DNA of 37,576 nt from Candidatus Micrarchaeota archaeon (GCA_027314465.1 DAHVAU010000004.1:1-37576), one strand, 5' to 3'; positions 13,099-35,312 are shown, numbered from the stretch's first letter. Numbers and translations are program-made. Notes: a model not told the origin generated them from the letters alone.

Positions 13099-15546
13099 TT
13101 ATACCTTGATCTGCTCAAGGTCCCCGGCGTCGACGAGCTTCACATTCCCGTATCTTATGGCGAGCTTGATAATCTCTGCGTTGTTCCCGTATGACCTGTA
13201 CAGCTTGTCCATGAAGCTTAGCTTCTTCTCCTGGTCAAGGAACACTATGTAGCTCCTGGAGCGCTGGCTTATCTCTATGTCCTTTATCTTGGCAGTGTCT
13301 GAATAGATCTTGATGTAGCTCTGCGTGCCCTTGTTGGTTATTATCATATCGCTCTTAGAGGATGCGTCCATCTCAGTGAACATCATTGCGTTTGCTATGC
13401 AGTAGTCCCTGAGCTTGCGGTATATGACCAGGTAATCTATGCTGTGGCCCGACTGCGCCGCCCATGCCGAAGGCGCATAGTAGTCTCCTGCAGATTCAAC
13501 AAGCCCCTTCTTTATGAGCACATTGAGCAGCGCATAGGTATTTCTCAGCGTTATTGATATGCGCGTGTTCCCGTACTTTATGAAGTTGCTTACCCCCGAG
13601 CGCATCTCCTCAGGGGTGAGCGGCATGAACCTCCAGTGGTAGAATGAATTGACCTTGTCGAACACCGCCACCACTGCGTCAGGGGACTCCATAGCCCTCT
13701 CATGCGTGCTCATCTTTATCTCTGGAACATCTACGAAGTACTGCTCTACGTTGTTAGGCACCAGCACCCTGTTAAGCACTATTATGAACACGAGCGCTAT
13801 TGCAAAGGCTATGTACAGCGGAGGTATGTTCAGACCTGCGCCCTGATACTGGTAGGGCACGTAATAGTTGCTGCCCAGTATCATTATCTCGAATGTGCCG
13901 TTGCCGTGGCTTAGAGCAGCGCCGTTAGGCAGTGAGTACCTGATGTCTCCGCCGGTTATGGTGCCCTGCGAAGCGTATGCCCCACTCACGCTGGCAGTAT
14001 ATGCAGTGCCTGATATTGGCACGCCGTTGCTGTATGCAGTGAACAGGAAGGTGCCGTTATTGAAATTAAGCACTACAGGAGCTATTGTGGCATTTGCTAC
14101 CTGGAACAGTGCTGATGAATATGTCCTGTTCTGCTGGTCGTCCAGCCTGGCTATGTAGTAGCCGCTTGGCAGCTCGAAGGACTGGTATGAGTAGAGCGTA
14201 GATGCCCCCACCTGCCCTATCCTTATTGGGGCCTGCGGCGCAGGCGTGAAGTTCATATCCACAAGGGGCACGTAGGCTATGACAGCGCTGCCGTGCGTTG
14301 AATTGAATACCTGCGTGCTTATCTGGGCCTGCTGCGAGAGGCCGACGACTGGAGGGAGCCCTATCTCTCCGTTCTGCTTCATCCTGATCCTGAACTCTGA
14401 CTCGAACTTGCTTGTGGTGTTGGCATTTGACAGGTTGAGGAATACTAGCGAGTACGAGCTATTTATTATGTCCGACACGCTCGGAGAGTAAGGTATCAGG
14501 GTGTTGAGCGTGAATATCGTGTAGTTGCCCGATGACGACTGCGGCAGAGGCGTGAAGCCGTGAGCTATGAACGGGATCCAGTACCTTGACGCAAGAACGG
14601 TGGCTATGTCTGACGAGAGGTTCAGGGCGCTGTTGTTCCACCCCGCCGAGGGATAGTTGCTCAGGGCTATGAACGTACCGTTGAGCACTGATACAGAAGT
14701 TGCAGAGCCGAACGAGAGGCCAGGCACGAACCTGAACGTGGGCGTGTTTAGTATGAGCCTGTTGTACGTGTAGTTGGAGTTGCTCGTATTGGCGAATCCC
14801 GTGCTGTTGTAGTAGCTCATGTACGGCATCTTCAGCGCTTCTGCAGTAGCATTGCTGTTCTGCGCTATCTGCCCGGTGCATGAGACTGACCTTGACAGAT
14901 TCCTGCCTACGTACAGCACGACATCGCCATTGGAGAGCAGATTTGGCAGTGTTGTGTTTGAGTACCTCTGGCAGCCCTCAGTGTAGGTTACATTAGGGAG
15001 CAGTATGTTGGGCATAAGCCCTGAAGCTATTATGACTATGGATCTCTTGGGTATGGCGTCCATCTGATTTATGTTGATGTAATTGAGGCTCGATGCGTTG
15101 AACAGCAGGCCTGAGTGCGACAGCGTGCTGTTGAGAGTGCTGAACAGCGTTGAGGGGAGGAAGCATTGCACGCAGTAGCTCTCCACGTTTATGACGTATA
15201 TTGGCATCACCGGCTTTGATGTGTACACCGTGAGAGACAGGTTAGCCGCGGCGACATTGTTGCTTGTGTATGCAACACGGGCATACTCCACGAGCTGGTT
15301 CGAGTAGTTGTACGTAAGCGCTCCGTAGTAGTCTGTTGTGAGACCCCCATATATCGGCCCGGATGCGGCCGGAGGCGCGACCTGTATGGCAGCAACTTGC
15401 TGCCCCACGTAGAGCACAAGCAAGGCCATTAGCACTACTGCCACAAGCACTGCAACTATCGCTAGCTTTATCTTTCCGCTCATGCCACTGGCGCTGGGTT
15501 CAGGAGCCATTTCCTGCAGCGCTGACTTGGATGCTCCTACTGTCAT
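13099..15546 (-). CDS. large type-I-like surface glycoprotein candidate: N-terminal anchor/signal, ~520-aa sequon-dense ectodomain, second TM, 216-aa cytoplasmic domain
   Basis: 815-aa ORF. The ATG overlaps the stop of the upstream 49-aa ORF (ATGA).
- First TM: KLAIVAVLVAVVLMALLVLYV.
- Ectodomain: about 24 N-x-S/T sequons by my count (NYS, NLS, NST, NAS, NVT, NTT, NAT, NGT and others).
- Second TM: PPLYIAFAIALVFIIVLNRVLV.
- C-terminal domain: contains a wHTH-like stretch, TLRNTYALLNVLIKKGLVES. Confidence 0.8.
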   Translation of the reverse strand: MTVGASKSALQEMAPEPSASGMSGKIKLAIVAVLVAVVLMALLVLYVGQQVAAIQVAPPAASGPIYGGLTTDYYGALTYNYSNQLVEYARVAYTSNNVAAANLSLTVYTSKPVMPIYVINVESYCVQCFLPSTLFSTLNSTLSHSGLLFNASSLNYININQMDAIPKRSIVIIASGLMPNILLPNVTYTEGCQRYSNTTLPNLLSNGDVVLYVGRNLSRSVSCTGQIAQNSNATAEALKMPYMSYYNSTGFANTSNSNYTYNRLILNTPTFRFVPGLSFGSATSVSVLNGTFIALSNYPSAGWNNSALNLSSDIATVLASRYWIPFIAHGFTPLPQSSSGNYTIFTLNTLIPYSPSVSDIINSSYSLVFLNLSNANTTSKFESEFRIRMKQNGEIGLPPVVGLSQQAQISTQVFNSTHGSAVIAYVPLVDMNFTPAPQAPIRIGQVGASTLYSYQSFELPSGYYIARLDDQQNRTYSSALFQVANATIAPVVLNFNNGTFLFTAYSNGVPISGTAYTASVSGAYASQGTITGGDIRYSLPNGAALSHGNGTFEIMILGSNYYVPYQYQGAGLNIPPLYIAFAIALVFIIVLNRVLVPNNVEQYFVDVPEIKMSTHERAMESPDAVVAVFDKVNSFYHWRFMPLTPEEMRSGVSNFIKYGNTRISITLRNTYALLNVLIKKGLVESAGDYYAPSAWAAQSGHSIDYLVIYRKLRDYCIANAMMFTEMDASSKSDMIITNKGTQSYIKIYSDTAKIKDIEISQRSRSYIVFLDQEKKLSFMDKLYRSYGNNAEIIKLAIRYGNVKLVDAGDLEQIKV

Positions 15547-16486: not shown

Positions 16487-16876
16487 CTATTCATGCTGGC
16501 CATTTTTATAGCCTTTCTTTGTTCCGTGCCTTGGTATCTCCAGCGCAGGAGTGTAATTCAGCAGGGACATTAGGTACATGATCAGGAGCACCACCGCAGC
16601 TATGAGGAACGTTGATATTGAAGGGGCCATGAACAGGCTCAGAATCATGAATATTACTCCAAGCGCAACGTACATTATCTGCCTTGAAGTGTACTTGTCC
16701 CTCCTCTTCCTGTACTGGGCATAGCATGCCCTGCACACCACGAGCCTGCTGCCCTTCTCGTTCTTTGTGACATTTCTCTTGAACAGCCTTATGGCGTCTA
16801 TGATATGGTCGTTGGCGACAGGAAGTCCGTCCCTCCTCTTCCCGCACATTATGCAGTAGCTTGGTTTCGCTGGCAT
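16487..16876 (-). CDS. zinc-ribbon protein with two C-terminal TM helices
   Basis: 129-aa ORF with an ATG start. The zinc ribbon is CIMC...35 residues...CRAC. It is followed by a basic linker (YRKRRDKYTSR) and two hydrophobic helices (IMYVALGVIFMILSLFM and FLIAAVVLLIMYLMSLL). Confidence 0.7.
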   Translation of the reverse strand: MPAKPSYCIMCGKRRDGLPVANDHIIDAIRLFKRNVTKNEKGSRLVVCRACYAQYRKRRDKYTSRQIMYVALGVIFMILSLFMAPSISTFLIAAVVLLIMYLMSLLNYTPALEIPRHGTKKGYKNGQHE

Positions 16877-16880
16877 CTCA

Positions 16881-17186
16881 TCATTCTATTGTAAGCTCCA
16901 CTATCTTTCCGAAGGTGTTCTTTATCCTTTCCTCTTCAAACGCATCCATCACGTTTGAGACGGATACATCGTCTATGCCTATCCTTCGCAGTATGTTTAT
17001 GACATCGCTCTGATGAAGGCCGGTCCTAAGCAGCATGTCCGTGAACATGAGCACGTTGACGTGGCTGTGCATCTTGTCCAGCTGGCCCACTATCTGCTCT
17101 ATGTTCTTCTCCCCGACCTTGAAGCTGGCCAGTAGCTTCTTGAATTCCAGCTTGCTTATCCCCAGCGATCCTGCCAATTCTATCAC
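16881..17186 (-). CDS. small helical protein homologous to the C-terminal module of the upstream ATPase
   Basis: 101-aa ORF whose GTG start overlaps the ATPase stop (GTGA). FKKLLASFKV..IEQIVGQLDKMHSHVNVLMFTDMLLRTGLHQSDVINILRRIGIDDVSVSNVMDAF aligns with the ATPase residues FEKLLLTSKF..IIDAVFKQLDARTRLVDLKEFVKILISERMTKEAIVSLLRAIGISDNIISRAF. Confidence 0.65.
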   Translation of the reverse strand: MIELAGSLGISKLEFKKLLASFKVGEKNIEQIVGQLDKMHSHVNVLMFTDMLLRTGLHQSDVINILRRIGIDDVSVSNVMDAFEEERIKNTFGKIVELTIE

Positions 17187-18688
17187 TCACTATATACAAA
17201 AGCCCTGCTTATTATGTTGTCCGATATGCCTATGGCCCTGAGCAGGGACACTATGGCCTCCTTGGTCATCCTCTCGCTGATCAGTATCTTGACGAACTCC
17301 TTGAGGTCCACGAGCCTTGTCCTTGCATCGAGCTGCTTGAACACTGCATCTATTATATCGTTGTTTATGCTGCTCTCTATGAACTTCGACGTGAGCAGCA
17401 GCTTCTCGAACGAGTACTCCTTTTGCAGGGTCTGGTCCCTGTTCTCCGATTCCGAGAGCAGGTCTGCCAGCGTTATTGTGTACACATCAAGAGGCACCTC
17501 TCCAACAACCCTGTTGAGTATGAACGTTGATGGGAACTGCGCAGAGGTCTGAAACGACATGTCTATTGCGGCTTCGCCAACCCCAAGCTTGCTTATCTCC
17601 GACCTTATGAACGGAGAGAAGTTGAGCGACCCTTGTATGTAGTCCATGAACTTCTGGAACTTTATCCTGAGTATTATGTTGGTGCCTACGTTTGAGAATA
17701 TGGCCTCGTTGATATCCGTTGGGTTCTGCGAAGCGACTATTAGGCCGAACTGGTACTTCCTTCCCTCCCTTACTATCGTGATCGCATCGCTCCTGTCATC
17801 GCTGGCCACCTTCCACGCCTCGTCCAGCACTATTATTGCCTTGAGGCCCTTTACTGCGCTCCATCCCTCGGATCTCATCTTCTCCTTGAGCGTCTGGAGC
17901 ATGAACAGCGCAGCAAGCGCCCTGAACCTCTCGTCAGGCAGGCCCGACAGATCGAGGTCCACGAGCCCTGATGATATGAGCTTGTCGAGATCTATGGTGC
18001 TCTTCCTGGCGAAGTAGTCCTCGCCCTCCCTTGAGAACTGCCTGAGCCTGTATATCGCATTCTCGAGCTCCGCAGGATACTCGTAGGTGCCTTCCTGGAG
18101 CTTCTCCTCCAGCAGCTTTGCAACGTCCTTGAGCGTCGGCGCAGGCCTGTTGCCAGTAGGCAGGCTTGAGAGTATGAAGCCTGCATTGAGGTACGCCTGC
18201 TCCACGGCCTCCGCCGTGAGCCTTCGCTGCTCAGGGAACCCGGTTATGTCGGTGAGTATGTCAAGCGAGTTCATTATCTGCTTTGACCTGTCTATCGGCT
18301 TCATGCCAGCAAGGTCCATCAGGTTTATGTAGTCGCCCTTTGCCAGCGATATTATGGTGCCGCCGCTCTGCTTGACCCAGCCCCTGTACTCCCCGGCCCA
18401 GTCTATTATTATGGCGTTAGTCCCCCACACGTAGCTTGCGCGCGTCAGGAACGTCTTTACGAAGAAGCTCTTTCCTGACCCTGTTATTCCCACCACAGAT
18501 ATATGCGGGTTTGTGAGGTTGTTGAACGTCCAGGTGAACGGCACGCCGAACCTCTTTGTTATGCCCACGAATATTGAATCCGTGGGGTCGTTGAGCAGGA
18601 ACTCTGGCGGCGGCTCTGGAGGCCTTGATAGGAAGGTTCTCTTGGCCAGTTCGTTGCTCATCAGTTTTTGCATCTTTATTAGTCCCAT
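17183..18688 (-). CDS. VirB4/TraC/CedB-like ATPase of the HerA-FtsK superfamily (DUF87/AAA_10-type), short form lacking a VirB4 N-terminal domain
   Basis: - Walker A: VVGITGSGKSFFVKT (nt ~18467-18490).
- NAIIIDWAGEY and INLMD.
- Walker B: AIIVLDEAWK.
- Arg-finger/sensor block: REGRKYQFGLIVASQNPTD.
The gene is embedded in a membrane-protein operon. I took ATG 18688 as the start; a TTG at 18709 (the ORF-track start) would overlap the upstream gene. Confidence 0.85.
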   Translation of the reverse strand: MGLIKMQKLMSNELAKRTFLSRPPEPPPEFLLNDPTDSIFVGITKRFGVPFTWTFNNLTNPHISVVGITGSGKSFFVKTFLTRASYVWGTNAIIIDWAGEYRGWVKQSGGTIISLAKGDYINLMDLAGMKPIDRSKQIMNSLDILTDITGFPEQRRLTAEAVEQAYLNAGFILSSLPTGNRPAPTLKDVAKLLEEKLQEGTYEYPAELENAIYRLRQFSREGEDYFARKSTIDLDKLISSGLVDLDLSGLPDERFRALAALFMLQTLKEKMRSEGWSAVKGLKAIIVLDEAWKVASDDRSDAITIVREGRKYQFGLIVASQNPTDINEAIFSNVGTNIILRIKFQKFMDYIQGSLNFSPFIRSEISKLGVGEAAIDMSFQTSAQFPSTFILNRVVGEVPLDVYTITLADLLSESENRDQTLQKEYSFEKLLLTSKFIESSINNDIIDAVFKQLDARTRLVDLKEFVKILISERMTKEAIVSLLRAIGISDNIISRAFVYSE

Positions 18689-18692
18689 ATGA

Positions 18693-19514
18693 TCACTTCT
18701 GTTGGTCAAACTCCGAAGACAGCTCGCCGATGCTAGGTACCCTGTAATTGAAGTTGTGCACCAGGTACATCTCCCTGCCCATTATGCGGGCTATGCTCAG
18801 GTCGAATATGTTGAATACCGTGGAGAGCTCGTTGAGCTGGTTTGTGAGCCTGTCCATCGCCTCTTTCTGGCTCACGCCTACCGCAGTACTCTCTATATAC
18901 ATTATGCTGTTGACCGGTCTTTCCCCTTCACCTATCCTGTCTATCCTTGCCTGTATCACATTTATCTGCCTCTGTATTGTCTCAAGGCCCATTGGATTGG
19001 GGTTGCTTCCCTGTGTCTCCTTAGAGTACTGGAACTCCAGAAGGCCGCGTTTGGCCTCAAGCTCCTCCCTGTAGTGCTGCACCTCCTCGGCAACGGCCAC
19101 TATGTTGAACTTGAACGGGAAGTGTATGTTCATTATGGCCTTCTCCCACTTGTCAGGCGCAGCTGCCAGGGCCATGTCCTCTTCCTGCACCTGCTCCTGC
19201 GCGAATATGTAGTTGTAGATGTTTGCTGTTAGGTATCCTGTCGCATAGTATATGCCGTTGGAGTACTTTATTATTGCATCCTGGCTCTTTGGTATTATGT
19301 AGCCCTTTGAAGGCACTATGACTATATTGAGCAGCTTTGTGAATGCGGGGAATATCAGGAAGTCTGCGAAGGCTATGAGCAGTATGAGGCCCAGGGAGAC
19401 GAACCCGAAGACAACTATTATTAGCCCGACTACGCCGTACTTGACACCGTTGACTATTACTAGCAGAACTACCAGCACTGAGAGGGCTATGTGTATTATC
19501 GTCTTCTCGTCCAT
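18693..19514 (-). CDS. membrane-anchored protein (N-terminal TM hairpin plus ~190-aa soluble domain), paralog of the 19519-20346 product
   Basis: 273-aa ORF with an ATG start. The TM region is IHIALSVLVVLLVIV...VVGLIIVVFGFVSLGLILLIAF. With the upstream gene it shares the blocks SNGIYYATGYL, FPFKFNIV and GVSQKEAMDRLTNQLNEL, and the ending RVPSIGEL. Confidence 0.75.
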   Translation of the reverse strand: MDEKTIIHIALSVLVVLLVIVNGVKYGVVGLIIVVFGFVSLGLILLIAFADFLIFPAFTKLLNIVIVPSKGYIIPKSQDAIIKYSNGIYYATGYLTANIYNYIFAQEQVQEEDMALAAAPDKWEKAIMNIHFPFKFNIVAVAEEVQHYREELEAKRGLLEFQYSKETQGSNPNPMGLETIQRQINVIQARIDRIGEGERPVNSIMYIESTAVGVSQKEAMDRLTNQLNELSTVFNIFDLSIARIMGREMYLVHNFNYRVPSIGELSSEFDQQK

Positions 19515-19518
19515 CCCA

Positions 19519-20346
19519 TCACATCATGTTCTGCGTCTGCTGGTTCTGCGAGTACCTCATGAGCTCGCTTATGGTCGTAGGCGGTATCATGTATTCAGGC
19601 TCCACCAGCACAAGCATGTCCGCCCCAGTTACCACTGATGCGCTCACCCCCACAGTTGCACTTATTCCTGCTGCAACCTCATCGGCCTTGAGCGATATCA
19701 TGTTCATCGCCTCTTCCTCTGTGCCTCCGAATACGGTGACTGCCGCATACACATCAAGGGCCTGCGAGTTTGCCTTTGAGACGCTGTCAAGCAGGTTGTG
19801 CCACATCGTCACCTCCCCCTTTATCCTGTCGAGCTGGGGCTTGCTGGCGTTCTTGTCAAGTTGTATGGCGTTGTACCTGGCCTCGGCCTCGTTTAGCCTG
19901 GAAGTCACCCTGGCTATGTAATCGTCTTTGTTTATGGAGTAGAGCTGCGAGGTCACCTTTATCGGGGTCTTGCTTATGCTTACCATCCTTGAGAACACAT
20001 TGGAGAAGTTGAACTTCTGTTCGTCATTCATCTCGGTGGACGAACTGTACACAGGCACCTTGATGAATGATGTCGCGTATATGAGGTTGTCCTTCCTTAC
20101 CAGTATCGCGTTGCCGTTCTGCGACATGTAGAAGGCATCGTCTGGATCTAGCACCACGCTGCCGCTCTTGGATCGCAGCACAGGCGCATACAGGTAGTAG
20201 TAGTACCTGGTCGCGAATGCCAGCACAGCGGCAATAAGCGCTATGATGGCTAAGAGTAGAGCCACCGGGCTCAGGCTGGCTGGAGGCAACCCAGTAAGCG
20301 TTGCAAAAACGAAACCAACCGCAGCGATGACAATGAAGATTACCAT
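19519..20346 (-). CDS. membrane-anchored protein (N-terminal TM hairpin plus ~200-aa soluble domain), paralog of the 18693-19514 product
   Basis: ATG 20346 (MVIFIVIAAVGF...); the ORF-track TTG is at 20367. There are two TM helices. The shared blocks are QNGNAILVRKDNLIYATSFI, TPIKVTSQL and GGTEEEAMNMISLKADEV, ending in MIPPTTISEL. Confidence 0.75.
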   Translation of the reverse strand: MVIFIVIAAVGFVFATLTGLPPASLSPVALLLAIIALIAAVLAFATRYYYYLYAPVLRSKSGSVVLDPDDAFYMSQNGNAILVRKDNLIYATSFIKVPVYSSSTEMNDEQKFNFSNVFSRMVSISKTPIKVTSQLYSINKDDYIARVTSRLNEAEARYNAIQLDKNASKPQLDRIKGEVTMWHNLLDSVSKANSQALDVYAAVTVFGGTEEEAMNMISLKADEVAAGISATVGVSASVVTGADMLVLVEPEYMIPPTTISELMRYSQNQQTQNMM

Positions 20347-20377
20347 TTCTTGATTGCTGCTGGGCAACTGACCACTG

Positions 20378-20398
20378 GTTTATACTAACAATATAAAC
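20378..20398 (-). promoter_or_regulatory. A/T-rich box-A candidates upstream of the ATPase sub-module
   Basis: The minus strand reads TAGTTTATATTGTTAGTATAAACC. The GTATAAAC element lies 32-39 nt upstream of ATG 20346 and the TTTATATT element lies 45-52 nt upstream. Confidence 0.35.
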
Positions 20399-20435
20399 TA
20401 TTAAAAGCTAACCGTGCACATGCCAGACGCTGGCT

Positions 20436-22871
20436 CTAGGAGCGCTTTCTGGAAAGCTTCTTTCTGAGCGTCTCTGCAGCTGTTGCGCTGACACCCACAT
20501 TTGCACTGGCCTGCAGGCTCCTTAGCGTGGTCTCTGAAGCGCTTGAGTTCGAAGCCACAGAGAGCTGCTCTGCAACATTGCCAGTTGTTGCGATGCTATC
20601 CAGAGTCTCTTCTGATGCGCTGGAATTGGATGCCACAGTGACTCTTTCCTCGCTGCTGCCGCCCCTTGCGATGGCATCCAGCGCAGGCTTTGCTGTGCTC
20701 GTGTCCCTTGCGATGGCCATGCGTTCCTTGAGCGTTCTGTCAGCAGTATTGGCTATCTCTGCTTCATCGCGCATGTCTGTCGCGCGGCCGGCAGGGGCCT
20801 TGCTTATGTCCCCCTCGCTCATGTCCTTGTAAGGCGATGCAGCCATGGTCTCCAGCACGTCCCTTGGGGTGCTTGGATTCGAAGCCGCTGCCAGCTTCTC
20901 CCCGGCAGCGCCAGTAGTTGCTATTGTCCTGAGCACATCGACAGGAGTGTGCGAGTTGCCTGCAAGGGCCGTGCGCAGGTCCGCGTTTGCGGCCCCGTGA
21001 TTGTCATGCAGGTCCTGCAGTGTGGACTGGCTTGTGAATGCATTTGACGCTGCTGTCACATGAATCCTGTTTAGCTCCCTCTGCTTGTCGGATAGGATCT
21101 TGGCCTGCTGTGCAGCTTCATCTGAGCGTTCCTTTGCCTCTTTCGCCAGGCGCGCTGCGTCTTCGTGGCGCGCTGCGCGCGCCGCAACTGCGCTTGCATT
21201 TGAAAGGCGCGTCGCCTCGTTGTTGAGGCTGGTAACTTCAGACTGCCTGTCGCTCAGGTTGTCCTCGTACTTTCTCATGAATGCATCTATGCGCTCAGGA
21301 TTGCTCAGGCGCTTGAGATGCTCTCTTCTTGCCCCGCTGAGCATGCTGGCAGCAGTCTCATTCGGGCTTCCTGCAGCAGCAAGCCTGTCCTCCTTAGCCT
21401 GCGATATGCCCCTAGTAAGGCTGCGGTTGCGCATTATAGAGCCAGCAGTTAAGCCGCCTGTTGCTGCGGCCACACCGGCCATGCCAGTAATGCCCCTGTA
21501 CGCCCTAGTATAAGGAGTCGATGTCGGCTTCGTGCCCGCTTCGGATATCTTCTCGCGTACCTTAGCTGGCAAGTCCCGTATCTTCATCGGGGCGAGCGCG
21601 CCTCCTGGAACCAGGACTGCAGGCGATGCCAGACCAGCAGCGCTCCTCGCTGCTGGCGCCCCGTAACCAGTAAAATCGTATCCGCCTTGAGGGCCTTTCA
21701 TGGCATGGTAGATGCCAAGCAGCGCGGCAGATGTTATGGAATGGTCGTAAGAGCCGGGTTTTGCTGCGGCATAATGTATCTTCTTTACCTCGTCAATCAC
21801 GGCCTTCTCCATGGCCTTGTGCTCCTTTCGTGTCATCTGGGACAGATCACCGGCATACTTTGCTGAGTGTACTGCTATTATATCGCGCGCGCTATCGTAC
21901 CTGCTGTCAGCAGCTATCTTGCTCCTCTCTATGGGTTTGCGGTATCCGACATCGACGGCCTTCTGGGATGCCCTGTAACCCAGGTATAGCGGAGGTACGC
22001 CCATCAGAGCCACGGTGCTGCCTACTCCCCTAATGTGTTGCGGAAGCCTCTTGTCGAGATTCCTAACGAAATGGCTGTCCTGCCTCTTTGCAGAGGCATT
22101 TGCCTGGAAGCGGGTATTCCTTAGCCTGTATGCATGGCCTGAGCGCAATACACCATACGACAATCCCAGGATAGGATTTACTGCTAATATCCCCAGCCCT
22201 AACGCGCCGCCCATAGCTACCTTCGTTTTTCTGGACCTTCCCTGCCACCTGCGCTTGAGCGCTGACGAGGTCTTAGACACCCCCGAAACAGCCTTACCCA
22301 CGGTCTTGCCGTACAGCGCAGAAGATCCTGCAAGAGTAGCATTTACTCCACTCGCTTTGGCTGCAGTCCAGCTGCCCATCTTCCTGAGCCTGTTCCTGGC
22401 GCCCGTTGGCTTGCCAGGGACCCCTGTGAAGACCTTTCTGAGGCGCCTTCCAGTACGCCGCCTGAACATTGTAGCACGGCCGCCGGTCGGCATTACAGCT
22501 GCCATAGGAGCCAGAATTCTTGCCGCTGCCCTCTTAGGCAGTGGCGGTCTCCCTCCTGCAGCCCCTATAAGCGTCTTTCCGGTGAACTTCGCGCTCTTGC
22601 TCCTGCCCTTTGCGGCGCGCAGCCTGCTGCCCACCATTAGCTCGCCAGCGTGGTGGCCCAATAGGGGCAGCACGAATGCATTCTTCCCTGCCAGCGAGGC
22701 CTTTCCTGCGGGATTGATGGCGCTGAACGTTGTTATGCCGAAGAAGTTGAACAGGCTGTATCCCCTGTTCAGGCCAGCGGCAGCGACTAGAAGTATGAGT
22801 ATGATTATTATTGGAATAAGGCCGTTTATGGCCCCCAGGGACAGCAATATAGCCATCAGAACCAATAACAT
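20436..22871 (-). CDS. 811-aa membrane protein: N-terminal TM segments, extremely basic acid-free region, central domain, coiled coil, C-terminal LRV/HEAT-like repeats
   Basis: ATG 22871.
- First TM: LLVLMAILLSLGAINGLIPIIIILILLVAAAGL.
- Residues ~81-220: about 35 Arg/Lys and no Asp/Glu by my count.
- Further hydrophobic segments near residues 217-242 and 283-297.
- Coiled coil near residues 535-605.
- Residues ~606-803: 5-7 repeats of roughly 24-26 aa, such as ERVTVASNSSASEETLDSIATTG and AEQLSVASNSSASETTLRSLQASA. Confidence 0.8.
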   Translation of the reverse strand: MLLVLMAILLSLGAINGLIPIIIILILLVAAAGLNRGYSLFNFFGITTFSAINPAGKASLAGKNAFVLPLLGHHAGELMVGSRLRAAKGRSKSAKFTGKTLIGAAGGRPPLPKRAAARILAPMAAVMPTGGRATMFRRRTGRRLRKVFTGVPGKPTGARNRLRKMGSWTAAKASGVNATLAGSSALYGKTVGKAVSGVSKTSSALKRRWQGRSRKTKVAMGGALGLGILAVNPILGLSYGVLRSGHAYRLRNTRFQANASAKRQDSHFVRNLDKRLPQHIRGVGSTVALMGVPPLYLGYRASQKAVDVGYRKPIERSKIAADSRYDSARDIIAVHSAKYAGDLSQMTRKEHKAMEKAVIDEVKKIHYAAAKPGSYDHSITSAALLGIYHAMKGPQGGYDFTGYGAPAARSAAGLASPAVLVPGGALAPMKIRDLPAKVREKISEAGTKPTSTPYTRAYRGITGMAGVAAATGGLTAGSIMRNRSLTRGISQAKEDRLAAAGSPNETAASMLSGARREHLKRLSNPERIDAFMRKYEDNLSDRQSEVTSLNNEATRLSNASAVAARAARHEDAARLAKEAKERSDEAAQQAKILSDKQRELNRIHVTAASNAFTSQSTLQDLHDNHGAANADLRTALAGNSHTPVDVLRTIATTGAAGEKLAAASNPSTPRDVLETMAASPYKDMSEGDISKAPAGRATDMRDEAEIANTADRTLKERMAIARDTSTAKPALDAIARGGSSEERVTVASNSSASEETLDSIATTGNVAEQLSVASNSSASETTLRSLQASANVGVSATAAETLRKKLSRKRS

Positions 22872-22899
22872 GCGATCAACATATTACAGGAGGCATTTT

Positions 22900-22908
22900 C
22901 ATATAAAT
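22900..22908 (-). promoter_or_regulatory. TATA/box-A candidate for the 811-aa gene
   Basis: The minus strand reads GGTATTTATATGAAAATG. The TATTTATAT element lies about 30-37 nt upstream of ATG 22871, in the 51-nt gap after the six-paralog block. Confidence 0.4.
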
Positions 22909-22922
22909 ACCTACCTAGGCGC

Positions 22923-24023
22923 CTAGACAAGTGTGCGCAGCCTTCCCGAGGTCTTTGCCATCCCCCCCAGTATCTCGGCTATCTGGGTCACCAGCGCATA
23001 TGTGAGAGCTATGATAAGCGCTGGGAAGAACAGTATGGAGAGCCAGAATGCCCCGAAAGTGCTCTGTAGCTGCCCTATGGTCGATACGAGAGGGGCGCTG
23101 GCTGACAGGGAATTGTCTATGAGGCCGCTTGGGGATGCGCCATATCTGTTGAGCGCAGTCTGCGATTGCGAGAGCTGCGTGTAGATGTTGGTCGATGTGT
23201 AGTAGTATGCTATCGAGAACAGGGTAGGCATTATAAAGTAGAATCCTATGGCCATGGCTATCATCATGCCGCCCAGGTTGCGCGTAGGTATCAGAGCCCT
23301 GAATATGATTCCAGGCACAAGGAATACAGGTATTGCGGCGTACATGAAGAATATTATCAGGTAGAACTGCGTGTACAGCGACAGCATCGCCTCGAACATG
23401 AACGCCACCACGACCCATGACGGCCAGAAGAACAGGTACTGGAAGGCGAGAGCCCACACCGGCGGTATGGTAGGGAAGTTGAATCCGCCAACTTCGCCCT
23501 CGAGCTTGAAGCTGGTGTAGCTGTAACCCAGGGTGCCAAGGTAGAAGACGTGGGATGCAGTGGTGTATGTTGTGTTCAGAGTGGTTGCTATGTAAGTAAG
23601 CGATGCATCAAACGGATTGATCGGGCCTGCAGTAACTGCCGGGAGTATGCCGAACATGACAGCGCTTATGAACACGAACAGTATCGCCATCATTGCCGTT
23701 GCTGTGGCCTCGTACAGCTCTCCTGTGCCAAACGTCCTGAGCCTGTCGTTTCTGAACGCCACTCCGAACATGAATAGGACAGCCGCTATTGAATAGGAGA
23801 ACATCACAGCGACCATCATCAGCGGGAAGTACTTGTGCCATTCGCTTATTATTGAGGGATTTATGTACTTGCAGTACCACGGAGCCACATTCTCTACTAT
23901 TCCTCCGGCAGCAGGATTTCCACAGTACTGGCTAAGTATGCCCTGCGCGTGCAATAGGCCGGTTATGCAGAGCACCGCTACAAACGCAATGGCCAGGGCG
24001 AATGTTATCCTCTTTGGCATCAT
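22923..24023 (-). CDS. polytopic membrane protein, paralog 6 of a six-member tandem family (VirB6/TrbL/CedA-like role hypothesised)
   Basis: 366-aa ORF whose ATGATG start overlaps the upstream stop by 4 nt. It has a signal-like N-terminus (ITFALAIAFVAVLCITGLLHAQG) and about 7 or more TM segments. The family signature is GIIFRALIPTRNLGGMMIAMAIGFYFIMP. Confidence 0.8.
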   Translation of the reverse strand: MMPKRITFALAIAFVAVLCITGLLHAQGILSQYCGNPAAGGIVENVAPWYCKYINPSIISEWHKYFPLMMVAVMFSYSIAAVLFMFGVAFRNDRLRTFGTGELYEATATAMMAILFVFISAVMFGILPAVTAGPINPFDASLTYIATTLNTTYTTASHVFYLGTLGYSYTSFKLEGEVGGFNFPTIPPVWALAFQYLFFWPSWVVVAFMFEAMLSLYTQFYLIIFFMYAAIPVFLVPGIIFRALIPTRNLGGMMIAMAIGFYFIMPTLFSIAYYYTSTNIYTQLSQSQTALNRYGASPSGLIDNSLSASAPLVSTIGQLQSTFGAFWLSILFFPALIIALTYALVTQIAEILGGMAKTSGRLRTLV

Positions 24024-25117
24024 AGTATCCTCGTTAATATCGAAAACAGGTCCATCCTCTCCCCTATGGACCTGGAGAAGTCGACTATGAAGGCGTCGAC
24101 CACCACCAGATTGAGGAGCGGTATGAATACTAACCCTGCTCCTATAAATCCAGCATACATGATCAGTGGAGCAAATATCTTGCTGAACACTGCATTAGTA
24201 TAATTAAGCGGATTGACTATATTCAATAGAGACTGCACGAGGAAGTTCCCAAGGGTGTCAAGCGGCACGGCTACCCCGCTGGTGGCGCCGCCTATGGCCG
24301 CATGCGCTATTGCAGAGTCAAGGAATCCGTACGTAAGGCCCACCATCAACGGATACACAACGCCTATGCCCAGGCCGAAGGCTATCATAGCCCCGCCGAA
24401 GCTTTTGGTGACCCCGAAAGACCTTGCTATAAGACCTATTATGATGAATGCGCTGAACAGGAGCATTGATGAGCTTATCAGGTACTGCTGCAGCAAGGAG
24501 GCGATGGAAAGCGCGTAGTATACCTGCATGTAAGGTATGATGTATTGGTGAACGAACACTATCGGGAGCAGCTGTATGGTGAAGCTGATGCCTATTCCGC
24601 CGTAGCCTAGATTTACCGGTATTGCCGGCGCTATGCCCCCTGCAAGCGAGAACCAGAACAGGGAGGTGCTGAACTGGGCAAGATCCGTATTGTATTGGTA
24701 CATGTCGCATGTTGCCACGCCGAAGATATCTGCTACGTTTGACGGCGATGGAGTTGCGCCTGCGTTGGCAGGATTGCATGCCTGCGGCAGCAATCCTATC
24801 GAATTCAGGGGCGTCACAGGATTGACGCATATGAGCATTGTGGAGAAGCTCACGAAGATTATCGCGAATACTATAGTGACCAGTCCGTCGTATATCTTGG
24901 CCCTTGCCCATACCTTCATGTCATTTCTTCCGAGCGCAGGGGAGAGCATGTAGAACAGCGCTGCAATGCCTATTATGACAGAGACGGCCATTAGCACTAT
25001 GGGGAACCATACATTGGGAGTGGCGGAGAAGAAGCTGACCACATTGTTGGTGTATCCCCCTCCAGCGAATGGGCACACTGCAAGTTGCAGCATCCATGGA
25101 ATTATAACTTCTAGCAT
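24020..25117 (-). CDS. polytopic membrane protein, paralog 5 of the tandem family
   Basis: 365-aa ORF with an ATG start 1 nt after the upstream stop. The family signature is GLIARSFGVTKSFGGAMIAFGLGIGVVYP. Cys-containing predicted external loops include QACNPANAG and ATCDMY. Confidence 0.8.
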   Translation of the reverse strand: MLEVIIPWMLQLAVCPFAGGGYTNNVVSFFSATPNVWFPIVLMAVSVIIGIAALFYMLSPALGRNDMKVWARAKIYDGLVTIVFAIIFVSFSTMLICVNPVTPLNSIGLLPQACNPANAGATPSPSNVADIFGVATCDMYQYNTDLAQFSTSLFWFSLAGGIAPAIPVNLGYGGIGISFTIQLLPIVFVHQYIIPYMQVYYALSIASLLQQYLISSSMLLFSAFIIIGLIARSFGVTKSFGGAMIAFGLGIGVVYPLMVGLTYGFLDSAIAHAAIGGATSGVAVPLDTLGNFLVQSLLNIVNPLNYTNAVFSKIFAPLIMYAGFIGAGLVFIPLLNLVVVDAFIVDFSRSIGERMDLFSILTRIL

Positions 25118-25118
25118 A

Positions 25119-26300
25119 TCACACCACCCTTCCGAGCATCCTGGCGCCCTGCAGCGAAGGCGCCCCTAGTATTGTTCCCAGCTTCTCTACCATCTCGTAT
25201 GATACTATTAGCGAGATTATTAATCCGATTAGGTCTATGCCTATGAACTGCAGTCCCTGGATAAATGCGAATACGTTCTCGTAGTATACCTCGCCGAAAT
25301 TGTAATCCATCAGGCCCAGTATCTCCTTGCCTGACGTGGTCAGGAAGCTCCCTGAATTGCACAGGCTTGAGAACGTAGTGTTGAACGTGCTGGAGTCGCA
25401 AAAGCCCTTGCCGCTAAGGCCGTGCCCGGTCACTCCGAGGAACGGGAACATCAATGCCGGGAATATCAGGTAAAACGATATGAACAGCGCTATAAGCGAT
25501 CCTCCGGCAGGCCGCGTCCATGGGAAGGAGCGCAGCACTATGCCAAGGTAGAGGAACAGTGGGAATAGGTAGTATATGGTGAACAGTATCACTATGATGA
25601 ACATGCCCATGAACATGCCCCCGAAGTAGATCGTCTGCTCGTCCCATAGCAGCTGTATTAGCAGCGCGATTCCCTGGAACGGATCGAACGCCACGCCGAA
25701 GTTGTTTGGCATTATGGAGATCCTGAATCCCCCTGTCGGAGGCGATGAGGTGGCGAATGCATTGGCTACCATAAGATTCACGTATATGCCAAACCAGTTC
25801 TCCAGACTGGACGTTATCACATTTGTGTTTATGTCATTGCACAGATTCACATACATGGTGTTTATGCTGCCTGTGCCTGACGAAGCCGATCCCACACCTG
25901 TTGAGGATGTCGCTATGTTGGAGAAGAAGGACAGCGATGCAGGGGCGAATGCCATGGCTGTGCCTATGACGGCTATTATGGCGAGATTGCCCCCTGCTTC
26001 TACCATCTCGGCCTTGCTGAAATTGATAAGCTGGTCCAGATGGAATGCTGTGCCTATTGCGTATGTGACGCCAACTATCGAGAGCATTGCTAGTATTATC
26101 AGCACTGCGATGGTAAGCATCGAGCTGCCGAGCGATGAGATGCCGGTTCCGGGGCTTGTTATTGCGGCAAGATTGCCCGCTGGGGACAGTGAGGCTGATG
26201 AAGAGAAGAAGTTGTTGCAGTTCACTACTGATATGGCGTTTGACGCGCCGATGAGCACGGCGAAAGCCAGGAGCGTTAGTGCAAATTGCCTGTATCCCAT
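25119..26300 (-). CDS. polytopic membrane protein, paralog 4 of the tandem family
   Basis: 393-aa ORF with an ATG start and a signal-like N-terminus (FALTLLAFAVLIGASNAIS). The family signature is GIVLRSFPWTRPAGGSLIALFISFYLIFP. Confidence 0.8.
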   Translation of the reverse strand: MGYRQFALTLLAFAVLIGASNAISVVNCNNFFSSSASLSPAGNLAAITSPGTGISSLGSSMLTIAVLIILAMLSIVGVTYAIGTAFHLDQLINFSKAEMVEAGGNLAIIAVIGTAMAFAPASLSFFSNIATSSTGVGSASSGTGSINTMYVNLCNDINTNVITSSLENWFGIYVNLMVANAFATSSPPTGGFRISIMPNNFGVAFDPFQGIALLIQLLWDEQTIYFGGMFMGMFIIVILFTIYYLFPLFLYLGIVLRSFPWTRPAGGSLIALFISFYLIFPALMFPFLGVTGHGLSGKGFCDSSTFNTTFSSLCNSGSFLTTSGKEILGLMDYNFGEVYYENVFAFIQGLQFIGIDLIGLIISLIVSYEMVEKLGTILGAPSLQGARMLGRVV

Positions 26301-26310
26301 CTAATCCAAC

Positions 26311-27948
26311 TCATATGAACCTGCTCAGCCCTATGATGGTGGTCTCTCCCCCCATCAGCGAAGAGATCCCCACCATTGCCGATATCATCATCAATACGTT
26401 TATTATAGGAATTATGAACGCCGACACCGCTATAATTCCATACATATTTGCCAGGGCACTAAGCGCCGCGGCTATGTTGTACGGGCCTATCCTGGCCACG
26501 CATGCGCCATTGTTTGCAGTAAGCAGGCCCAGAGGCGACGACAGCGGAGATATTCCGGTGAAGAACGACAGTATGAAAGTTACCGGCAGTGATATCTCCT
26601 GCACTAGAGTCTGCGCAAGCGCCTCTGACTCAAAAGGCCATATCGTAGTGGCGCCAGCCTGGATGTTACATGAGTACAGATTGATAACGTCGCCTGCGTA
26701 TGGATACACGTAGAAGTTTATGTTGCGCTTCACGTAGCATGTAGCCGCAGTGCTGAATGGATTCCCCCCGCTGATGAAAGGCTGCTCGCCCTGCGATACG
26801 CTTGAGCACGCATTTAGAGTGGTGGCAGTTCCTTTTGCAGGGGTCAGACCCTTAAGTATGTAGCTGGTCTTGAGCGAATCGGCGCTAGTGTAGCAGTACA
26901 GCACGTTGTTACCAGCGCTGTTCGCAAGCTGCCCGAAGCCGCACAGCGATACTGCAGGTATGGAGCTTGCCCCTATGAACGAGTTGGGGTTGAGGTTGCT
27001 GAGCGATGAATATTCGAAGAGGAACACCGTAGGGTATATCACTACAGCGACCACTGTCGCTGCAATCAGTAGTCCCCCTATTCTCCTCGTGAAGGGTATG
27101 GTGCGCAGCACTATTCCTCCTGCAAGCAGGTACGGCCATCCCATAAGCACTATCAGGATGAGCACCATCTGTATGACGAACATATACAGGGCTATTGTGC
27201 CCTCAGTGGTTATGGCAGGCATTATCGCCCTCTGCAGCACGTAGCCGCCGTAGGGATTATATGAGAGCTTCAGTGTGGGCACAACGTCAGGAACCGGGAG
27301 GTCGCACTCCGCAGGTATGCACACAACTATGAAAGGCCGCAGGTTCCTGAGAAAGAACAGCAGGCTGTCGAAGTTGTACAGCGAGTTCAGCTCCATTGCC
27401 GACTGATTGCTCATGTTTGCGAACACAACGTACGTAGAGGCGAGTCCGTAGTCAATCTGCCTTGTGACTGGAGTGACTCCTGCATTGCTGTCTATCAGGT
27501 ACTTGCATACGGCAGTGGTAGGCCCTGGCAGGTTCTGGGCGTTGTCCTGGTATACGCTATTGAAAGTGCTTATCTGCGAGTTCGGAAGTATGTTGTTGCA
27601 TATATTGTTTATCTGTGATGTGCCCCCGCTTCCAAGTATGCTGGAGAAGCTTATGCTGGAGCTTGTGCCTATGAGAAAGAAGAACCATACTAGCAGCACT
27701 ACGATGAGTATGCTTGCGCCGGCGTGCTGCAGCTCCGATATGGCGCTGGCCTTCACCCTGTTATTGTTTAGGAGCCACCCTATCATATAGTATATCGAGG
27801 CCAACAGCACGGCCAGTGTGGAGGCTATGATTATGACAGGTATCCAGTTGTTGAATACATTATAGTTCGTGGCTATGCTCGACTGCGCGCCTGCGGCTGA
27901 TGAGAGGACCAACGCAGCTGCAATTGCGAATGCTATCGTAAGTCTCAT
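26311..27948 (-). CDS. polytopic membrane protein, paralog 3 (largest, with an expanded Cys-rich external region)
   Basis: 545-aa ORF whose ATG overlaps the upstream stop (ATGA). It has a signal-like N-terminus (LTIAFAIAAALVLSSAAGAQS). The family signature is GIVLRTIPFTRRIGGLLIAATVVAVVIYP. There are many Cys residues in predicted loops. Confidence 0.8.
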   Translation of the reverse strand: MRLTIAFAIAAALVLSSAAGAQSSIATNYNVFNNWIPVIIIASTLAVLLASIYYMIGWLLNNNRVKASAISELQHAGASILIVVLLVWFFFLIGTSSSISFSSILGSGGTSQINNICNNILPNSQISTFNSVYQDNAQNLPGPTTAVCKYLIDSNAGVTPVTRQIDYGLASTYVVFANMSNQSAMELNSLYNFDSLLFFLRNLRPFIVVCIPAECDLPVPDVVPTLKLSYNPYGGYVLQRAIMPAITTEGTIALYMFVIQMVLILIVLMGWPYLLAGGIVLRTIPFTRRIGGLLIAATVVAVVIYPTVFLFEYSSLSNLNPNSFIGASSIPAVSLCGFGQLANSAGNNVLYCYTSADSLKTSYILKGLTPAKGTATTLNACSSVSQGEQPFISGGNPFSTAATCYVKRNINFYVYPYAGDVINLYSCNIQAGATTIWPFESEALAQTLVQEISLPVTFILSFFTGISPLSSPLGLLTANNGACVARIGPYNIAAALSALANMYGIIAVSAFIIPIINVLMMISAMVGISSLMGGETTIIGLSRFI

Positions 27949-29171
27949 ACGTTACCCCAGAATGGCCCCACGGCCATCATCCTGTTTACCGAATTCAGTC
28001 CCTTGGTAAGCCCTTGCGCAAAGGCCAGCACTATTGCAAGGTCAATGCCTATCATAACTATGCCCTCGAAAAGGTACTCCGCAGTCTTTATTCCAAAGTC
28101 TATGGTTACCCCTGGCACATTGAACAAAGTACTGAACATCAGGGTTATTCCTTGCGAAAGCCCTCCTTCTGAAGAGAACGCCCCTGAGAGGAATGACGTG
28201 GTCAGCGGTATGCCGCTAAGTAGGCCGCTCCCGGTGTTGAAGCTCTGCGGCTGCGAGTTGAAGAAGTTGCTTGCCGGAGAGGCCCCAAGCTGGTAGGGGA
28301 ACGTGTACTGGTTGTATGGGTTGCACACCTGCCCTGCAACAGTGCACGGAGTGTTTATCCACGTTACAACGTAGGTATTGAACAGTATGGCAAGAGGCAG
28401 TATGAAGTAGAATCCTATGGCAAGGGCTAGGAATGTGTCTGACGACTCTCTGAGCTTGGGCCCGGCGAAAGGTATTGAGCGCATTGCTATGGCTACTGGG
28501 ACTACAATAGTCAGCGCAGTAGTCTGTATTAATGAGAGCAGCAGGTACACAACGAATATCACTCCGAAAGACACGATTATTAAGGGCGTGAAGGCCGCCA
28601 CCAGAGCGCCGCTGAATCCGTAGTATATGGTGAACAGTTCGGTACCAAGCTCCACGTGCAGGAAAGCAGAGAGATATGTATTCACTATCTCATCTACAGC
28701 GGAGCCGAGGTTTCCTGCTATTGTTATGAGTACCGATTCTGAGTATATCTGCTGGAATAGCGACAGCCCTTTTGAGAACATCAGATTGCCAAGGTAGAGC
28801 TGCGCAAACTGCATCGGGTCCTGGTATGTGGCATGCAGCACAGGAGCCGCAGATGCAGTAAGAGATGAGCCTACCTGACATGTTGTCGCTGCTATTGCGA
28901 TGAGTATTATGACTATGATTATGGCTATGACGCCCTGGAAGGCCTCGTACTTCGCCGCGCCCTTCATCTTCTCGCGCATGGAAACAGGAAATATGTTGGC
29001 GAACGAGTATACCGCTGCGGATATCATGAACGATGCAAGTACGATAAGCAGGTTTATCTGGATCCAGGAATTTGTGTTGAGCGTGCCGCTAGCCCCGGTG
29101 GTGCCACCGAAAGTGCAGGCCTGCAGGTAGGGATTCTGCGCAGCAGCAAGTACCATTGGTAGGATGTTCAT
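27945..29171 (-). CDS. polytopic membrane protein, paralog 2 of the tandem family
   Basis: 408-aa ORF whose ATG shares 1 nt with the upstream stop (TGATG). It carries a divergent form of the signature, AIAMRSIPFAGPKLRESSDTFLALAIGFYFILP. Confidence 0.8.
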   Translation of the reverse strand: MNILPMVLAAAQNPYLQACTFGGTTGASGTLNTNSWIQINLLIVLASFMISAAVYSFANIFPVSMREKMKGAAKYEAFQGVIAIIIVIILIAIAATTCQVGSSLTASAAPVLHATYQDPMQFAQLYLGNLMFSKGLSLFQQIYSESVLITIAGNLGSAVDEIVNTYLSAFLHVELGTELFTIYYGFSGALVAAFTPLIIVSFGVIFVVYLLLSLIQTTALTIVVPVAIAMRSIPFAGPKLRESSDTFLALAIGFYFILPLAILFNTYVVTWINTPCTVAGQVCNPYNQYTFPYQLGASPASNFFNSQPQSFNTGSGLLSGIPLTTSFLSGAFSSEGGLSQGITLMFSTLFNVPGVTIDFGIKTAEYLFEGIVMIGIDLAIVLAFAQGLTKGLNSVNRMMAVGPFWGNV

Positions 29172-35248: not shown

Positions 35249-35312
35249 TTCGCTTTGGACTTAGGGCATATGTGGCTGTGCACCAGGCTGCGCGCGTGAG
35301 GATTGGTTCTTG

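Follow-up and report, generated by a model that had tools for sequence, protein, structure and literature searches.

RRBP1/p180, the C-terminal tails of Oxa1 and YidC2, and zuotin are membrane-tethered basic proteins that bind ribosomes or RNA; they combine an anchor (in zuotin, a J-domain) with a long, highly basic region, which in p180 is followed by a coiled coil, and they have been proposed to keep translating ribosomes at the membrane for large secreted or membrane-protein clients. J-proteins of the DjlA type join an N-out/C-in anchor to a cytoplasmic C-terminal J-domain and lack a long polybasic region, DotM (from the Legionella type IVB coupling complex) is a membrane-anchored cytoplasmic element whose positive surface recognizes acidic secretion substrates, and the prototype of the leucine-rich-repeat-variant (LRV) family, from Azotobacter vinelandii, is soluble and carries an Fe-S domain. 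Like other DPANN archaea, Micrarchaeota grow attached to archaeal hosts and have to import most of their building blocks, and, to our knowledge, hardly any of the genes that underlie their structures for contact and exchange have been identified. As for the Ced DNA-translocation system, the N-domains of CedB and CedD jointly mimic a VirB4 N-domain (PMC11868833). Here we describe a protein of 811 amino acids (aa), hereafter the target, that is encoded by a complete open reading frame (ORF) with an ATG start at positions 20436-22871 (minus strand) of a 37,576-nucleotide (nt) contig from Candidatus Micrarchaeota (GCA_027314465.1, DAHVAU010000004.1:1-37576; the window, that is, the whole stretch of DNA analysed), a DPANN source whose housekeeping genes in the window are archaeal (CDC48, S6e, eIF2-gamma, topoisomerase VI-B and tRNA-Pro). 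The target is a long, LRV-bearing member of an undescribed, Micrarchaeota-specific family, which we tentatively read as membrane-anchored cytoplasmic tethers. A preliminary description of this DNA, which had seen in the protein a possible DNA receptor or tether of a type IV secretion system (T4SS)-like machine, is partly supported by our results: a probably cytoplasmic polybasic element, LRV repeats and the lack of a known counterpart are all borne out, while the genomic context was over-read.

Compared with the systems above, the target family resembles p180, Oxa1, YidC2 and zuotin in that it pairs with giant surface-protein genes and some of its members carry J-domains, but there is no sequence or fold relationship to the target and the analogy is purely architectural. 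Three members (P0223, P0269 and P0291) end in canonical C-terminal J-domains with the HPD motif, which would give them the N-out/C-in anchor and cytoplasmic J-domain arrangement of DjlA; the target itself, however, has no J-domain, and the anchors are unrelated in sequence. The likeness to DotM lies in a positive, membrane-anchored element, and the giant partner proteins of the target family are net acidic, but DotM is a folded domain with basic patches, in contrast to the 187-residue disordered polycation of the target, and there is no homology between the two.

What holds the family together is its N-terminal domain (aa 1-66, nt 22674-22871, minus strand), which consists of a transmembrane helix (aa 2-34, nt 22770-22868, minus strand) followed by a juxtamembrane motif, NRGYSLFNFFG..T....NP.GK.S..GK. 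Hydropathy on the Kyte-Doolittle (KD) scale, computed in 19-residue windows, reaches 2.77 over aa 1-41, and AlphaFold2, run for the target with an 18-sequence alignment, models a helix with a predicted local distance difference test score (pLDDT) of 62-77. The helix carries small-residue packing motifs (G13, A17, A30-G33) and an invariant P20, and the anchor has Gly, Pro, Ala and Arg positions that are invariant over 102 family members. Homologues of 600-830 aa share the consensus L-S-L-G-A-I-N-x-x-I-P-x-x-I-I-L-I-L-L-V-A-A-A-G-L-N-R-G-Y-S-L-F-N-F-F-G...N-P-G-G-K-x-S-x-x-G-K; among 12-18 of them, 30 columns within aa 11-66 are invariant, while whole-protein identity is 22-26%. Other Micrarchaeota metagenome-assembled genomes (MAGs) encode full-length, syntenic homologues of 700-830 aa.

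A profile built on the anchor alone and searched exhaustively against 1.84 billion representative proteins matched 344 representative clusters, 240 of them at E <= 1e-10, with the anchor N-terminal in all 150 matches listed; a word-indexed homologue search with the anchor alignment had returned only short fragments. The target is itself recovered by this profile (102.5 bits, E = 8e-25) as P0001, the NCBI gene call on the same contig, which starts at M6, five codons later than the 811-aa ORF, and is therefore 806 aa long. We delineate the family by a ~66-aa N-terminal domain whose helix carries invariant G13, P20 and A30, followed by R36-G37-[YFW]-x-x-F-x-x-F-G; the target has this domain and also the basic, acid-poor tail, free of a second membrane span, that follows it. 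Among 119 family members of at least 230 aa, lengths range from 231 to 1137 aa (median 454), the first 150 tail residues contain a median of 29 Arg/Lys vs. 8 Asp/Glu, and the median net tail charge is +32; beyond being basic, the tails cannot be aligned across the family. By sequence, the near-invariant 66-aa anchor defines the family, and neither the repeats nor the basic stretch does. Every source-named member is from Micrarchaeota. A search of viral contigs turned up no relative, and thus gives no sign that the family is of viral or mobile origin. The anchor domain has no Pfam, NCBIfam or PDB counterpart; its profile drew from the PDB only antibody heavy chains, at the junction of complementarity-determining region 3 and framework region 4 ('RGY..FDYWGQGTLV', E >= 0.09), which we dismiss as a chance resemblance. 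We found neither the family nor the gene cluster around the target (~17 genes, below) described in the limited collection of literature searched. While the building blocks of the target are familiar (an anchor, a disordered polycation, a coiled coil and a solenoid), the family represents a previously unannotated, lineage-specific group in which an unusually constrained anchor is joined to a fast-evolving, polycationic cytoplasmic tail. Two irregular copies were noted in passing: in a close relative (locus L009, 9992-12958), a family gene of only 403 aa, which lies ~1.7 kb before the next conserved gene and may be truncated or frameshifted, and an 85-aa family remnant adjoining a DDE transposase (locus L014).

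Behind the anchor follows an acid-free polybasic region, rich in Ala, Gly, Ser and Thr and disordered to judge from AlphaFold2 (aa 78-264, nt 22080-22640, minus strand). The preliminary description had counted about 35 Arg/Lys and no Asp/Glu over residues ~81-220; the run is in fact larger, its 187 residues containing 25 Arg and 16 Lys (41 basic residues in total) and not one Asp or Glu, and E77 is the lone acidic residue within aa 1-264. When the 811-aa protein was shuffled 100,000 times, the longest run free of Asp/Glu averaged 57 residues and never exceeded 177, so that none of the shuffles attained the run of the target, which confirms the observation well past the level of chance. The protein as a whole has a net charge of +57 (120 Arg/Lys vs. 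63 Asp/Glu) and is the sole strongly cationic protein of its cluster, the other cluster proteins ranging from -7 to +14. The expectation that orthologs would keep the basic region was borne out as well, with 43-56 Arg/Lys vs. 2-9 Asp/Glu at residues 76-300 in 15 of 16 close homologues; it is the composition of the region that is kept among homologues, not its sequence. Hydrophobic segments had been proposed to flank the region on both sides. On the N-terminal side this holds, the segment being the transmembrane helix of the anchor, whereas on the C-terminal side it does not: the weakly hydrophobic Gly/Ala/Leu segment found there by KD (aa 217-242, nt 22146-22223, minus strand) reaches 1.75 in the target and 0.87-1.62 in 15 homologues, and a second hydrophobic segment is absent from 111 of 128 family members. 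Hence, we reject a second membrane span at aa 217-242, where the hydrophobicity is not conserved, and consider the segment to be probably not membrane-spanning. Content of guanine plus cytosine (GC) is also raised over the target gene (0.553-0.567 for 20001-23000, vs. about 0.50-0.53 in the flanks), which is most simply explained by the Ala/Gly/Arg-rich composition of the protein and not by foreign origin.

AlphaFold2 gave pLDDT values below 50 over aa 34-323 and 365-436, and for 54% of the model overall. A semi-conserved helical island (aa 314-395, nt 21687-21932, minus strand), which includes the clade motif L-[ST]-x-x-E-x-R-x-L, is modeled as helices at 314-337, 348-369 and 379-395 (pLDDT 56-71) and coincides with a local maximum of conservation (0.54-0.66). 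Two long helices (aa 525-566 and 570-609, nt 21045-21299, minus strand; pLDDT 72-88) fit a helical hairpin or a coiled coil in the model, in agreement with the coiled coil previously placed at ~535-605. They are followed by six LRV-type alpha-alpha repeats (aa ~601-790) and a basic C-terminal helix that extends to aa 810 (together nt 20442-21071, minus strand). Six units with the pattern L-x-x-[VL]-A-x-N-x-x-[ST] stand in tandem; they begin near aa 601, 630, 656, 714, 740 and 766, recur every ~26-29 aa and are interrupted by a ~32-aa insert after the third, and AlphaFold2 models the region as short helix pairs (pLDDT 70-90). The earlier assignment of these repeats to the LRV type was upheld, Pfam LRV (PF01816) matching the whole protein at E = 1.3e-8 and 35.1 bits (gathering cutoff 21.6), although the score is cumulative, no single repeat being significant by itself, and LRV_2 (PF25591) remained under its cutoff (21.1 vs. 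27). The target therefore resembles the LRV family (PF01816/PF25591) in a C-terminal ~200-residue region that exceeds the PF01816 gathering score and in its six tandem units of short helix pairs, but differs from the Azotobacter prototype in that the repeats, each weak alone, form the distal end of a membrane-anchored polybasic protein. Foldseek comparison of the target model to PDB structures returned as top matches only ARM/HEAT solenoids, none significant (best E = 0.02, TM <= 0.25); with 54% of the model below pLDDT 50, only the class of these matches (alpha-solenoids) is informative. We sought tandem repeats at the DNA level in the LRV region and found none, and the repeats are therefore old. 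They are an addition specific to the clade, occurring in 5 of 18 close homologues and in 1 of 102 members of the wider family. No Pfam model other than LRV and no NCBIfam model (the library including CedB and CedD) matched the target, and the full-length profile found in the PDB only compositional chance matches (the HP0958 coiled coil, the adenovirus pre-histone-like nucleoprotein and LeuRS; all E >= 0.29). The target's neighbors in the cluster are 47-84% identical between the same genome pairs, whereas BLAST aligned the target only over its N-terminal region with 8 of 10 loci and over no more than 323 of 811 residues (31-35% identity) with the other two; to judge from these alignments, the tail of the target evolves much faster than any other part of the cluster.

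With regard to topology, there is no charge before the transmembrane helix, while R36 and 41 further Arg/Lys follow it, and N-glycosylation sequons occur at 0.99 per 100 aa in the target vs. 2.94 in the 815-aa ectodomain protein of the cluster and 0.59 in its cytoplasmic ATPase. Given the uncharged N-terminus, the positive C-terminal flank (the positive-inside rule), the J-domains and zinc ribbon of relatives, the absence of a second span and the low sequon density, we infer a single-pass protein with a short, uncharged N-terminus outside the cell and the ~775-residue remainder in the cytoplasm. Nucleic acid or lipid head-groups would then be within reach of the basic region, and the concern raised previously, that its location might exclude contact with nucleic acids, does not materialize.

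The genomic contexts of the family point in two directions. In the first, to which the target's clade belongs, the gene stands directly after the last of six paralogous membrane-protein genes in a cluster of ~17 genes (13099-33208, minus strand). The cluster is syntenic in other Micrarchaeota (the related loci come from Candidatus Micrarchaeota MAGs) and adjoins topoisomerase VI-B wherever the gene table of a related locus was examined (five loci: L001, L002 and L011-L013); therefore, it is chromosomal and ancient within the phylum. The target gene, on the other hand, is accessory to it: three more distant Micrarchaeota (L011, L012 and L013) have the cluster intact with a 276-aa gene directly after the last paralog, and a hidden Markov model of the anchor found no family member in L011 or L013, while the cluster of L012 is headed by a 368-aa member. 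The genome of L013 does encode a member elsewhere, P0311 (584 aa), which follows a 1639-aa ORF after 45 bp on a different contig. The latter arrangement represents the second context. We surveyed 53 loci with 50 anchor-bearing ORFs, and a giant ORF lay directly upstream on the same strand in 17 of 17 non-cluster metagenome or MAG loci that extend 2.3 kb or more upstream of the gene (L014, L016-L018, L022, L026-L028, L031, L032, L034, L043, L044, L047, L052, L054 and L055), often with a gap of 30-31 bp, and two further targeted look-ups, one with a J-domain member, revealed the same arrangement. Lengths of the giant ORFs run from 764 aa to beyond 2883 aa, contig ends having truncated those in the lower part of the range. 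Their products are mutually homologous (32-82% identity), net acidic and equipped with an N-terminal signal or anchor, and their C-termini share a 'NYTWSPNETT...LG..LSYGSI' motif followed by a membrane-spanning segment and a short basic tail, an arrangement resembling a signal for sorting or anchoring. Overall, they look like anchored proteins of the cell surface. No similarity was found between the cluster proteins and the giant proteins. Several of the giant ORFs are near integrases or transposases. Linked in this way both to a phylum-wide membrane/ATPase cluster beside topoisomerase VI and to giant surface proteins, the family offers handles on the biology of DPANN host contact.

Hence, because of the constrained packing helix, the cytoplasmic polycation and the gene linkage to envelope proteins, we favor, tentatively and well short of conviction, the hypothesis that the target, anchored in the membrane, serves envelope machinery as a cytoplasmic tether or adaptor with a nucleic-acid ligand. 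Specifically, the anchor helix, rich in small-residue packing motifs, would dock on partner membrane proteins. For the target, these partners would be a complex of the six polytopic paralogs and the HerA/VirB4-like ATPase of the cluster, and for most relatives, the C-terminal membrane anchor of the giant surface protein encoded just upstream. The acid-free polycation (+41 over 187 residues) would serve as a flexible electrostatic arm that keeps a polyanion at the membrane; nucleic acid would be the favored polyanion, with RNA (translating ribosomes or the mRNA of envelope proteins) somewhat preferred over DNA. In the target's clade, the distal helical hairpin and the six LRV repeats would add a protein-binding platform. 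In its length, in its composition of Lys/Arg with Ala/Gly/Ser/Thr and few aromatic residues, and in that homologues exchange Arg and Lys freely, the arm is more like a nucleic-acid-binding tail than like a short lipid-binding motif, and the pairing with giant proteins together with the J-domain fusions suggests a part in the production or handling of large envelope proteins. By analogy, the tethering of ribosomes or mRNA in the manner of p180, the Oxa1 tails and zuotin is a possibility that would fit better than DNA translocation.

It is important to note that several points weigh against this hypothesis. Instead of holding a polyanion, a long stretch of basic, disordered sequence may bind lipid, act as an entropic spacer or determine topology. 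The docking partners proposed here are guessed from the order of the genes, and the topology derives from rules and from the domain fusions of relatives. Further, J-domains occur in only 3 of about 130 family members examined, and the target's clade stands apart from the other members by its context, tail length and LRV repeats, so its function may have shifted.

Alternatively, the tail might be mainly a scaffold or spacer, the charge of which merely sets the topology and keeps the chain extended, with the anchor, the short helices (aa 283-296, 314-395 and 451-470) and the repeat platform as the working parts that recruit, for instance, chaperones or the ATPase. This is a rather unlikely scenario in our view, yet it would account well for the conservation islands that these short helices form within an otherwise unalignable tail, for the fast evolution of the tail, and for the swapping of C-terminal modules within the family (LRV repeats, J-domains, coiled coils and, in one member, a zinc ribbon). 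However, topology needs few charges, not 41, and the exclusion of Asp/Glu over 187 residues, which none of the shuffles reproduced, together with the low Asp/Glu content family-wide, argues for selection on charge itself.

The preliminary description had placed the target in the context of DNA translocation, and the corresponding hypothesis is that of a substrate (DNA) receptor or tether of a T4SS/Ced/Ted-like machine, the polybasic arm capturing DNA, single- or double-stranded, where the channel opens to the cytoplasm and passing it to, or taking it from, the HerA/VirB4-like ATPase. The gene's position is suggestive in this respect, standing between the six paralogous polytopic membrane proteins directly upstream (366, 365, 393, 545, 408 and 424 aa; 22923-30445, minus strand; pairwise BLASTP E = 1e-4 to 6e-8) and the ATPase module downstream, as are the predicted cytoplasmic location and the conserved composition of the basic region. 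The ATPase (508 aa, 17183-18709, minus strand) is a P-loop protein of the FtsK-HerA superfamily (HerA/VirB4/CedB/CedD-like) that is 80-84% identical between genomes; it matches Pfam DUF87 (3.8e-15), TraG P-loop (3.3e-13) and AAA_10 (3.1e-12) as well as HerA and VirB4 chains in the PDB. Its best NCBIfam match is the DNA-translocating CedD (7.6e-22), followed by TraC (2e-19), HerA and CedB. Directly downstream of the target, two further proteins (282 and 273 aa; 18693-20367, minus strand), with N-terminal transmembrane segments and a cytoplasmic domain, belong to mutually paralogous families (hhalign probability 96.9%) and, alongside a separate ATPase, recall the CedB/CedD split of a VirB4 N-domain (PMC11868833). 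The locus thus resembles Ced, Ted and T4SS in joining several polytopic membrane proteins with an ATPase of the HerA/VirB4/CedB/CedD superfamily, and it is chromosomal and conserved, as Ced and Ted are (PMC9905601).

Beyond the ATPase, however, the resemblance fades, and it is only because of this protein that a T4SS/Ced/Ted framing of the locus suggests itself. The NCBIfam matches of the ATPase (CedD, TraC, HerA, CedB and VirB4; E = 1e-10 to 1e-22) all lie far under the family cutoffs (e.g., 77.7 bits vs. 600 for CedD and 69 bits vs. 567 for TraC), and it lacks the N-domain of VirB4; from its sequence, membership appears clear for the superfamily and not for any subfamily. The paralogs had been described as channel-like, a likeness that could not be recovered: an AlphaFold2 model of the 366-aa paralog (pLDDT 88) had no significant Foldseek neighbor in the PDB, TrwI/VirB6 (7o3v_J) ranking eighth with E = 0.41 and TM 0.17-0.22, and none of 68 homologues of the paralog matched TrbL/VirB6 in Pfam, even at E <= 1. 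A VirB6/CedA/TedA-like channel identity of the upstream paralogs thus found support in neither the structure search nor Pfam. Nor did a PDB profile search (both proteins) or Pfam (the 273-aa family only) give any sign of a VirB4 N-domain identity of the 282- and 273-aa proteins; neither protein has a Pfam or PDB match. No pilin, relaxase or coupling protein was recognized in the cluster, the small ORFs (52-129 aa) not having been compared with pilin structures. The target itself does not match a type IV coupling protein (VirD4/TraG/TrwB), since it has the anchor but no P-loop or other NTPase domain was found in its tail by Pfam, NCBIfam or the AlphaFold2 model. No component of these systems resembles the 811-aa protein, in keeping with the preliminary remark that none has its architecture, and none was matched in the NCBIfam or PDB profile searches. 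Further, the cluster comprises six paralogs and ~17 genes, and its source-labeled homologues are almost all from Micrarchaeota (the 366-aa paralog beside the target, for instance, has at least 167 homologues, the source-labeled ones all Micrarchaeota except two labeled Marsarchaeota).

The cluster persists without the target gene in L011 and L013, with only a short relative at its head in L012, and the family's pairing with giant surface proteins and J-domains is left unexplained by DNA handling. The receptor role proposed for the target is not supported: the gene is dispensable to the cluster in distant Micrarchaeota, and its relatives stand behind giant surface-protein genes. We do not favor a dedicated DNA receptor, which we consider unlikely. 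The locus is better described as encoding a membrane complex, specific to Micrarchaeota, that has a HerA/VirB4-like ATPase, and the case advises caution, in that it is unsafe to read a locus with such an ATPase as a DNA-transfer T4SS when, as here, the 'receptor' is dispensable and the channel homology fails.

It is improbable, too, that the polybasic stretch acts without nucleic acids altogether, by binding anionic lipid head-groups on the inner leaflet and thereby clustering lipids, shaping the membrane or stabilizing a complex. Such binding would suit a stretch that begins right behind the membrane anchor, after the aromatic interfacial motif YSLFNFFG, keeps its charge and not its sequence, and in some segments attains a moderate helical hydrophobic moment (up to 0.60-0.64). 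Known lipid-binding polybasic motifs, however, are short and have hydrophobic anchors, whereas the arm, at 187-250 residues, is very long and contains few hydrophobic or aromatic residues; in addition, AlphaFold2 shows no confident amphipathic helices in the stretch, and lipid binding leaves unexplained the J-domain and LRV ends and the giant-protein pairing.

More speculatively, and with little likelihood in our estimation, the cluster and the giant surface proteins might build a symbiont-side envelope apparatus for exchange with the host, with the polybasic-tail family as its cytoplasmic receiving arm, which may capture imported host nucleic acid or couple surface adhesins to the cell interior. 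A candidate for such an apparatus comes from Micrarchaeon ARM-1, in which cryo-tomography showed a 21-nm barrel docking host nanotubes (bioRxiv 10.1101/2024.05.20.594898). Finally, a reversed topology with the tail as an extracellular cationic adhesin or brush touching the host's negatively charged surface, which a fast-evolving family linked to surface-protein genes in a host-attached DPANN lineage might bring to mind, is very improbable, since exporting 41 positive charges behind an uncharged N-terminus violates the positive-inside rule, the J-domains and zinc ribbon of the relatives' tails need the cytoplasm, and the sequon density of the target is well below that of the ectodomain protein.

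As to the rest of the cluster, its genes run, in order, from two membrane proteins (621 and 245 aa) through the six paralogs, the target, the two smaller paralogs and the ATPase to four small or medium-sized proteins and an 815-aa protein. Downstream of the ATPase, a 101-aa protein (16881-17186, minus strand) resembles the C-terminal ~65 residues of the ATPase (BLASTP E = 6e-4, 30% identity), which points to duplication of a small helical domain. A 129-aa protein (16487-16876, minus strand; net charge +14), kept in all clusters examined, starts with a zinc-ribbon-like segment (CxxC...CxxC), ends with a membrane segment and also has a basic stretch. The 815-aa protein (13099-15546, minus strand), used above as the reference for an ectodomain, has an N-terminal anchor, a predicted, sequon-rich ectodomain of ~500 aa, a second span near aa 569-600 and a cytoplasmic C-terminal domain of ~215 aa, and is 50-58% identical between genomes. 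Diverging from the cluster is a separate, type-IV-filament-like module (34076-36824, plus strand) of a 390-aa coiled-coil protein followed by a 504-aa ATPase of the T2SSE/PilB/FlaI type (Pfam T2SSE, 1.1e-32).

Lastly, a TATA-box-like heptamer, TTTATAT, was read from the sequence at 22901-22907 (minus strand), ~33 nt upstream of the target's ATG in the 51-bp gap that follows the preceding gene, and represents the putative promoter of the target itself. A second copy (20389-20395, minus strand) precedes the gene next after the target. Both copies lie ~25-35 nt upstream of a start codon, and the gaps that hold them (51 and 68 bp) are the only sizeable intergenic gaps in that part of the cluster, which suggests separate archaeal promoters and agrees with an insertion of the target gene.

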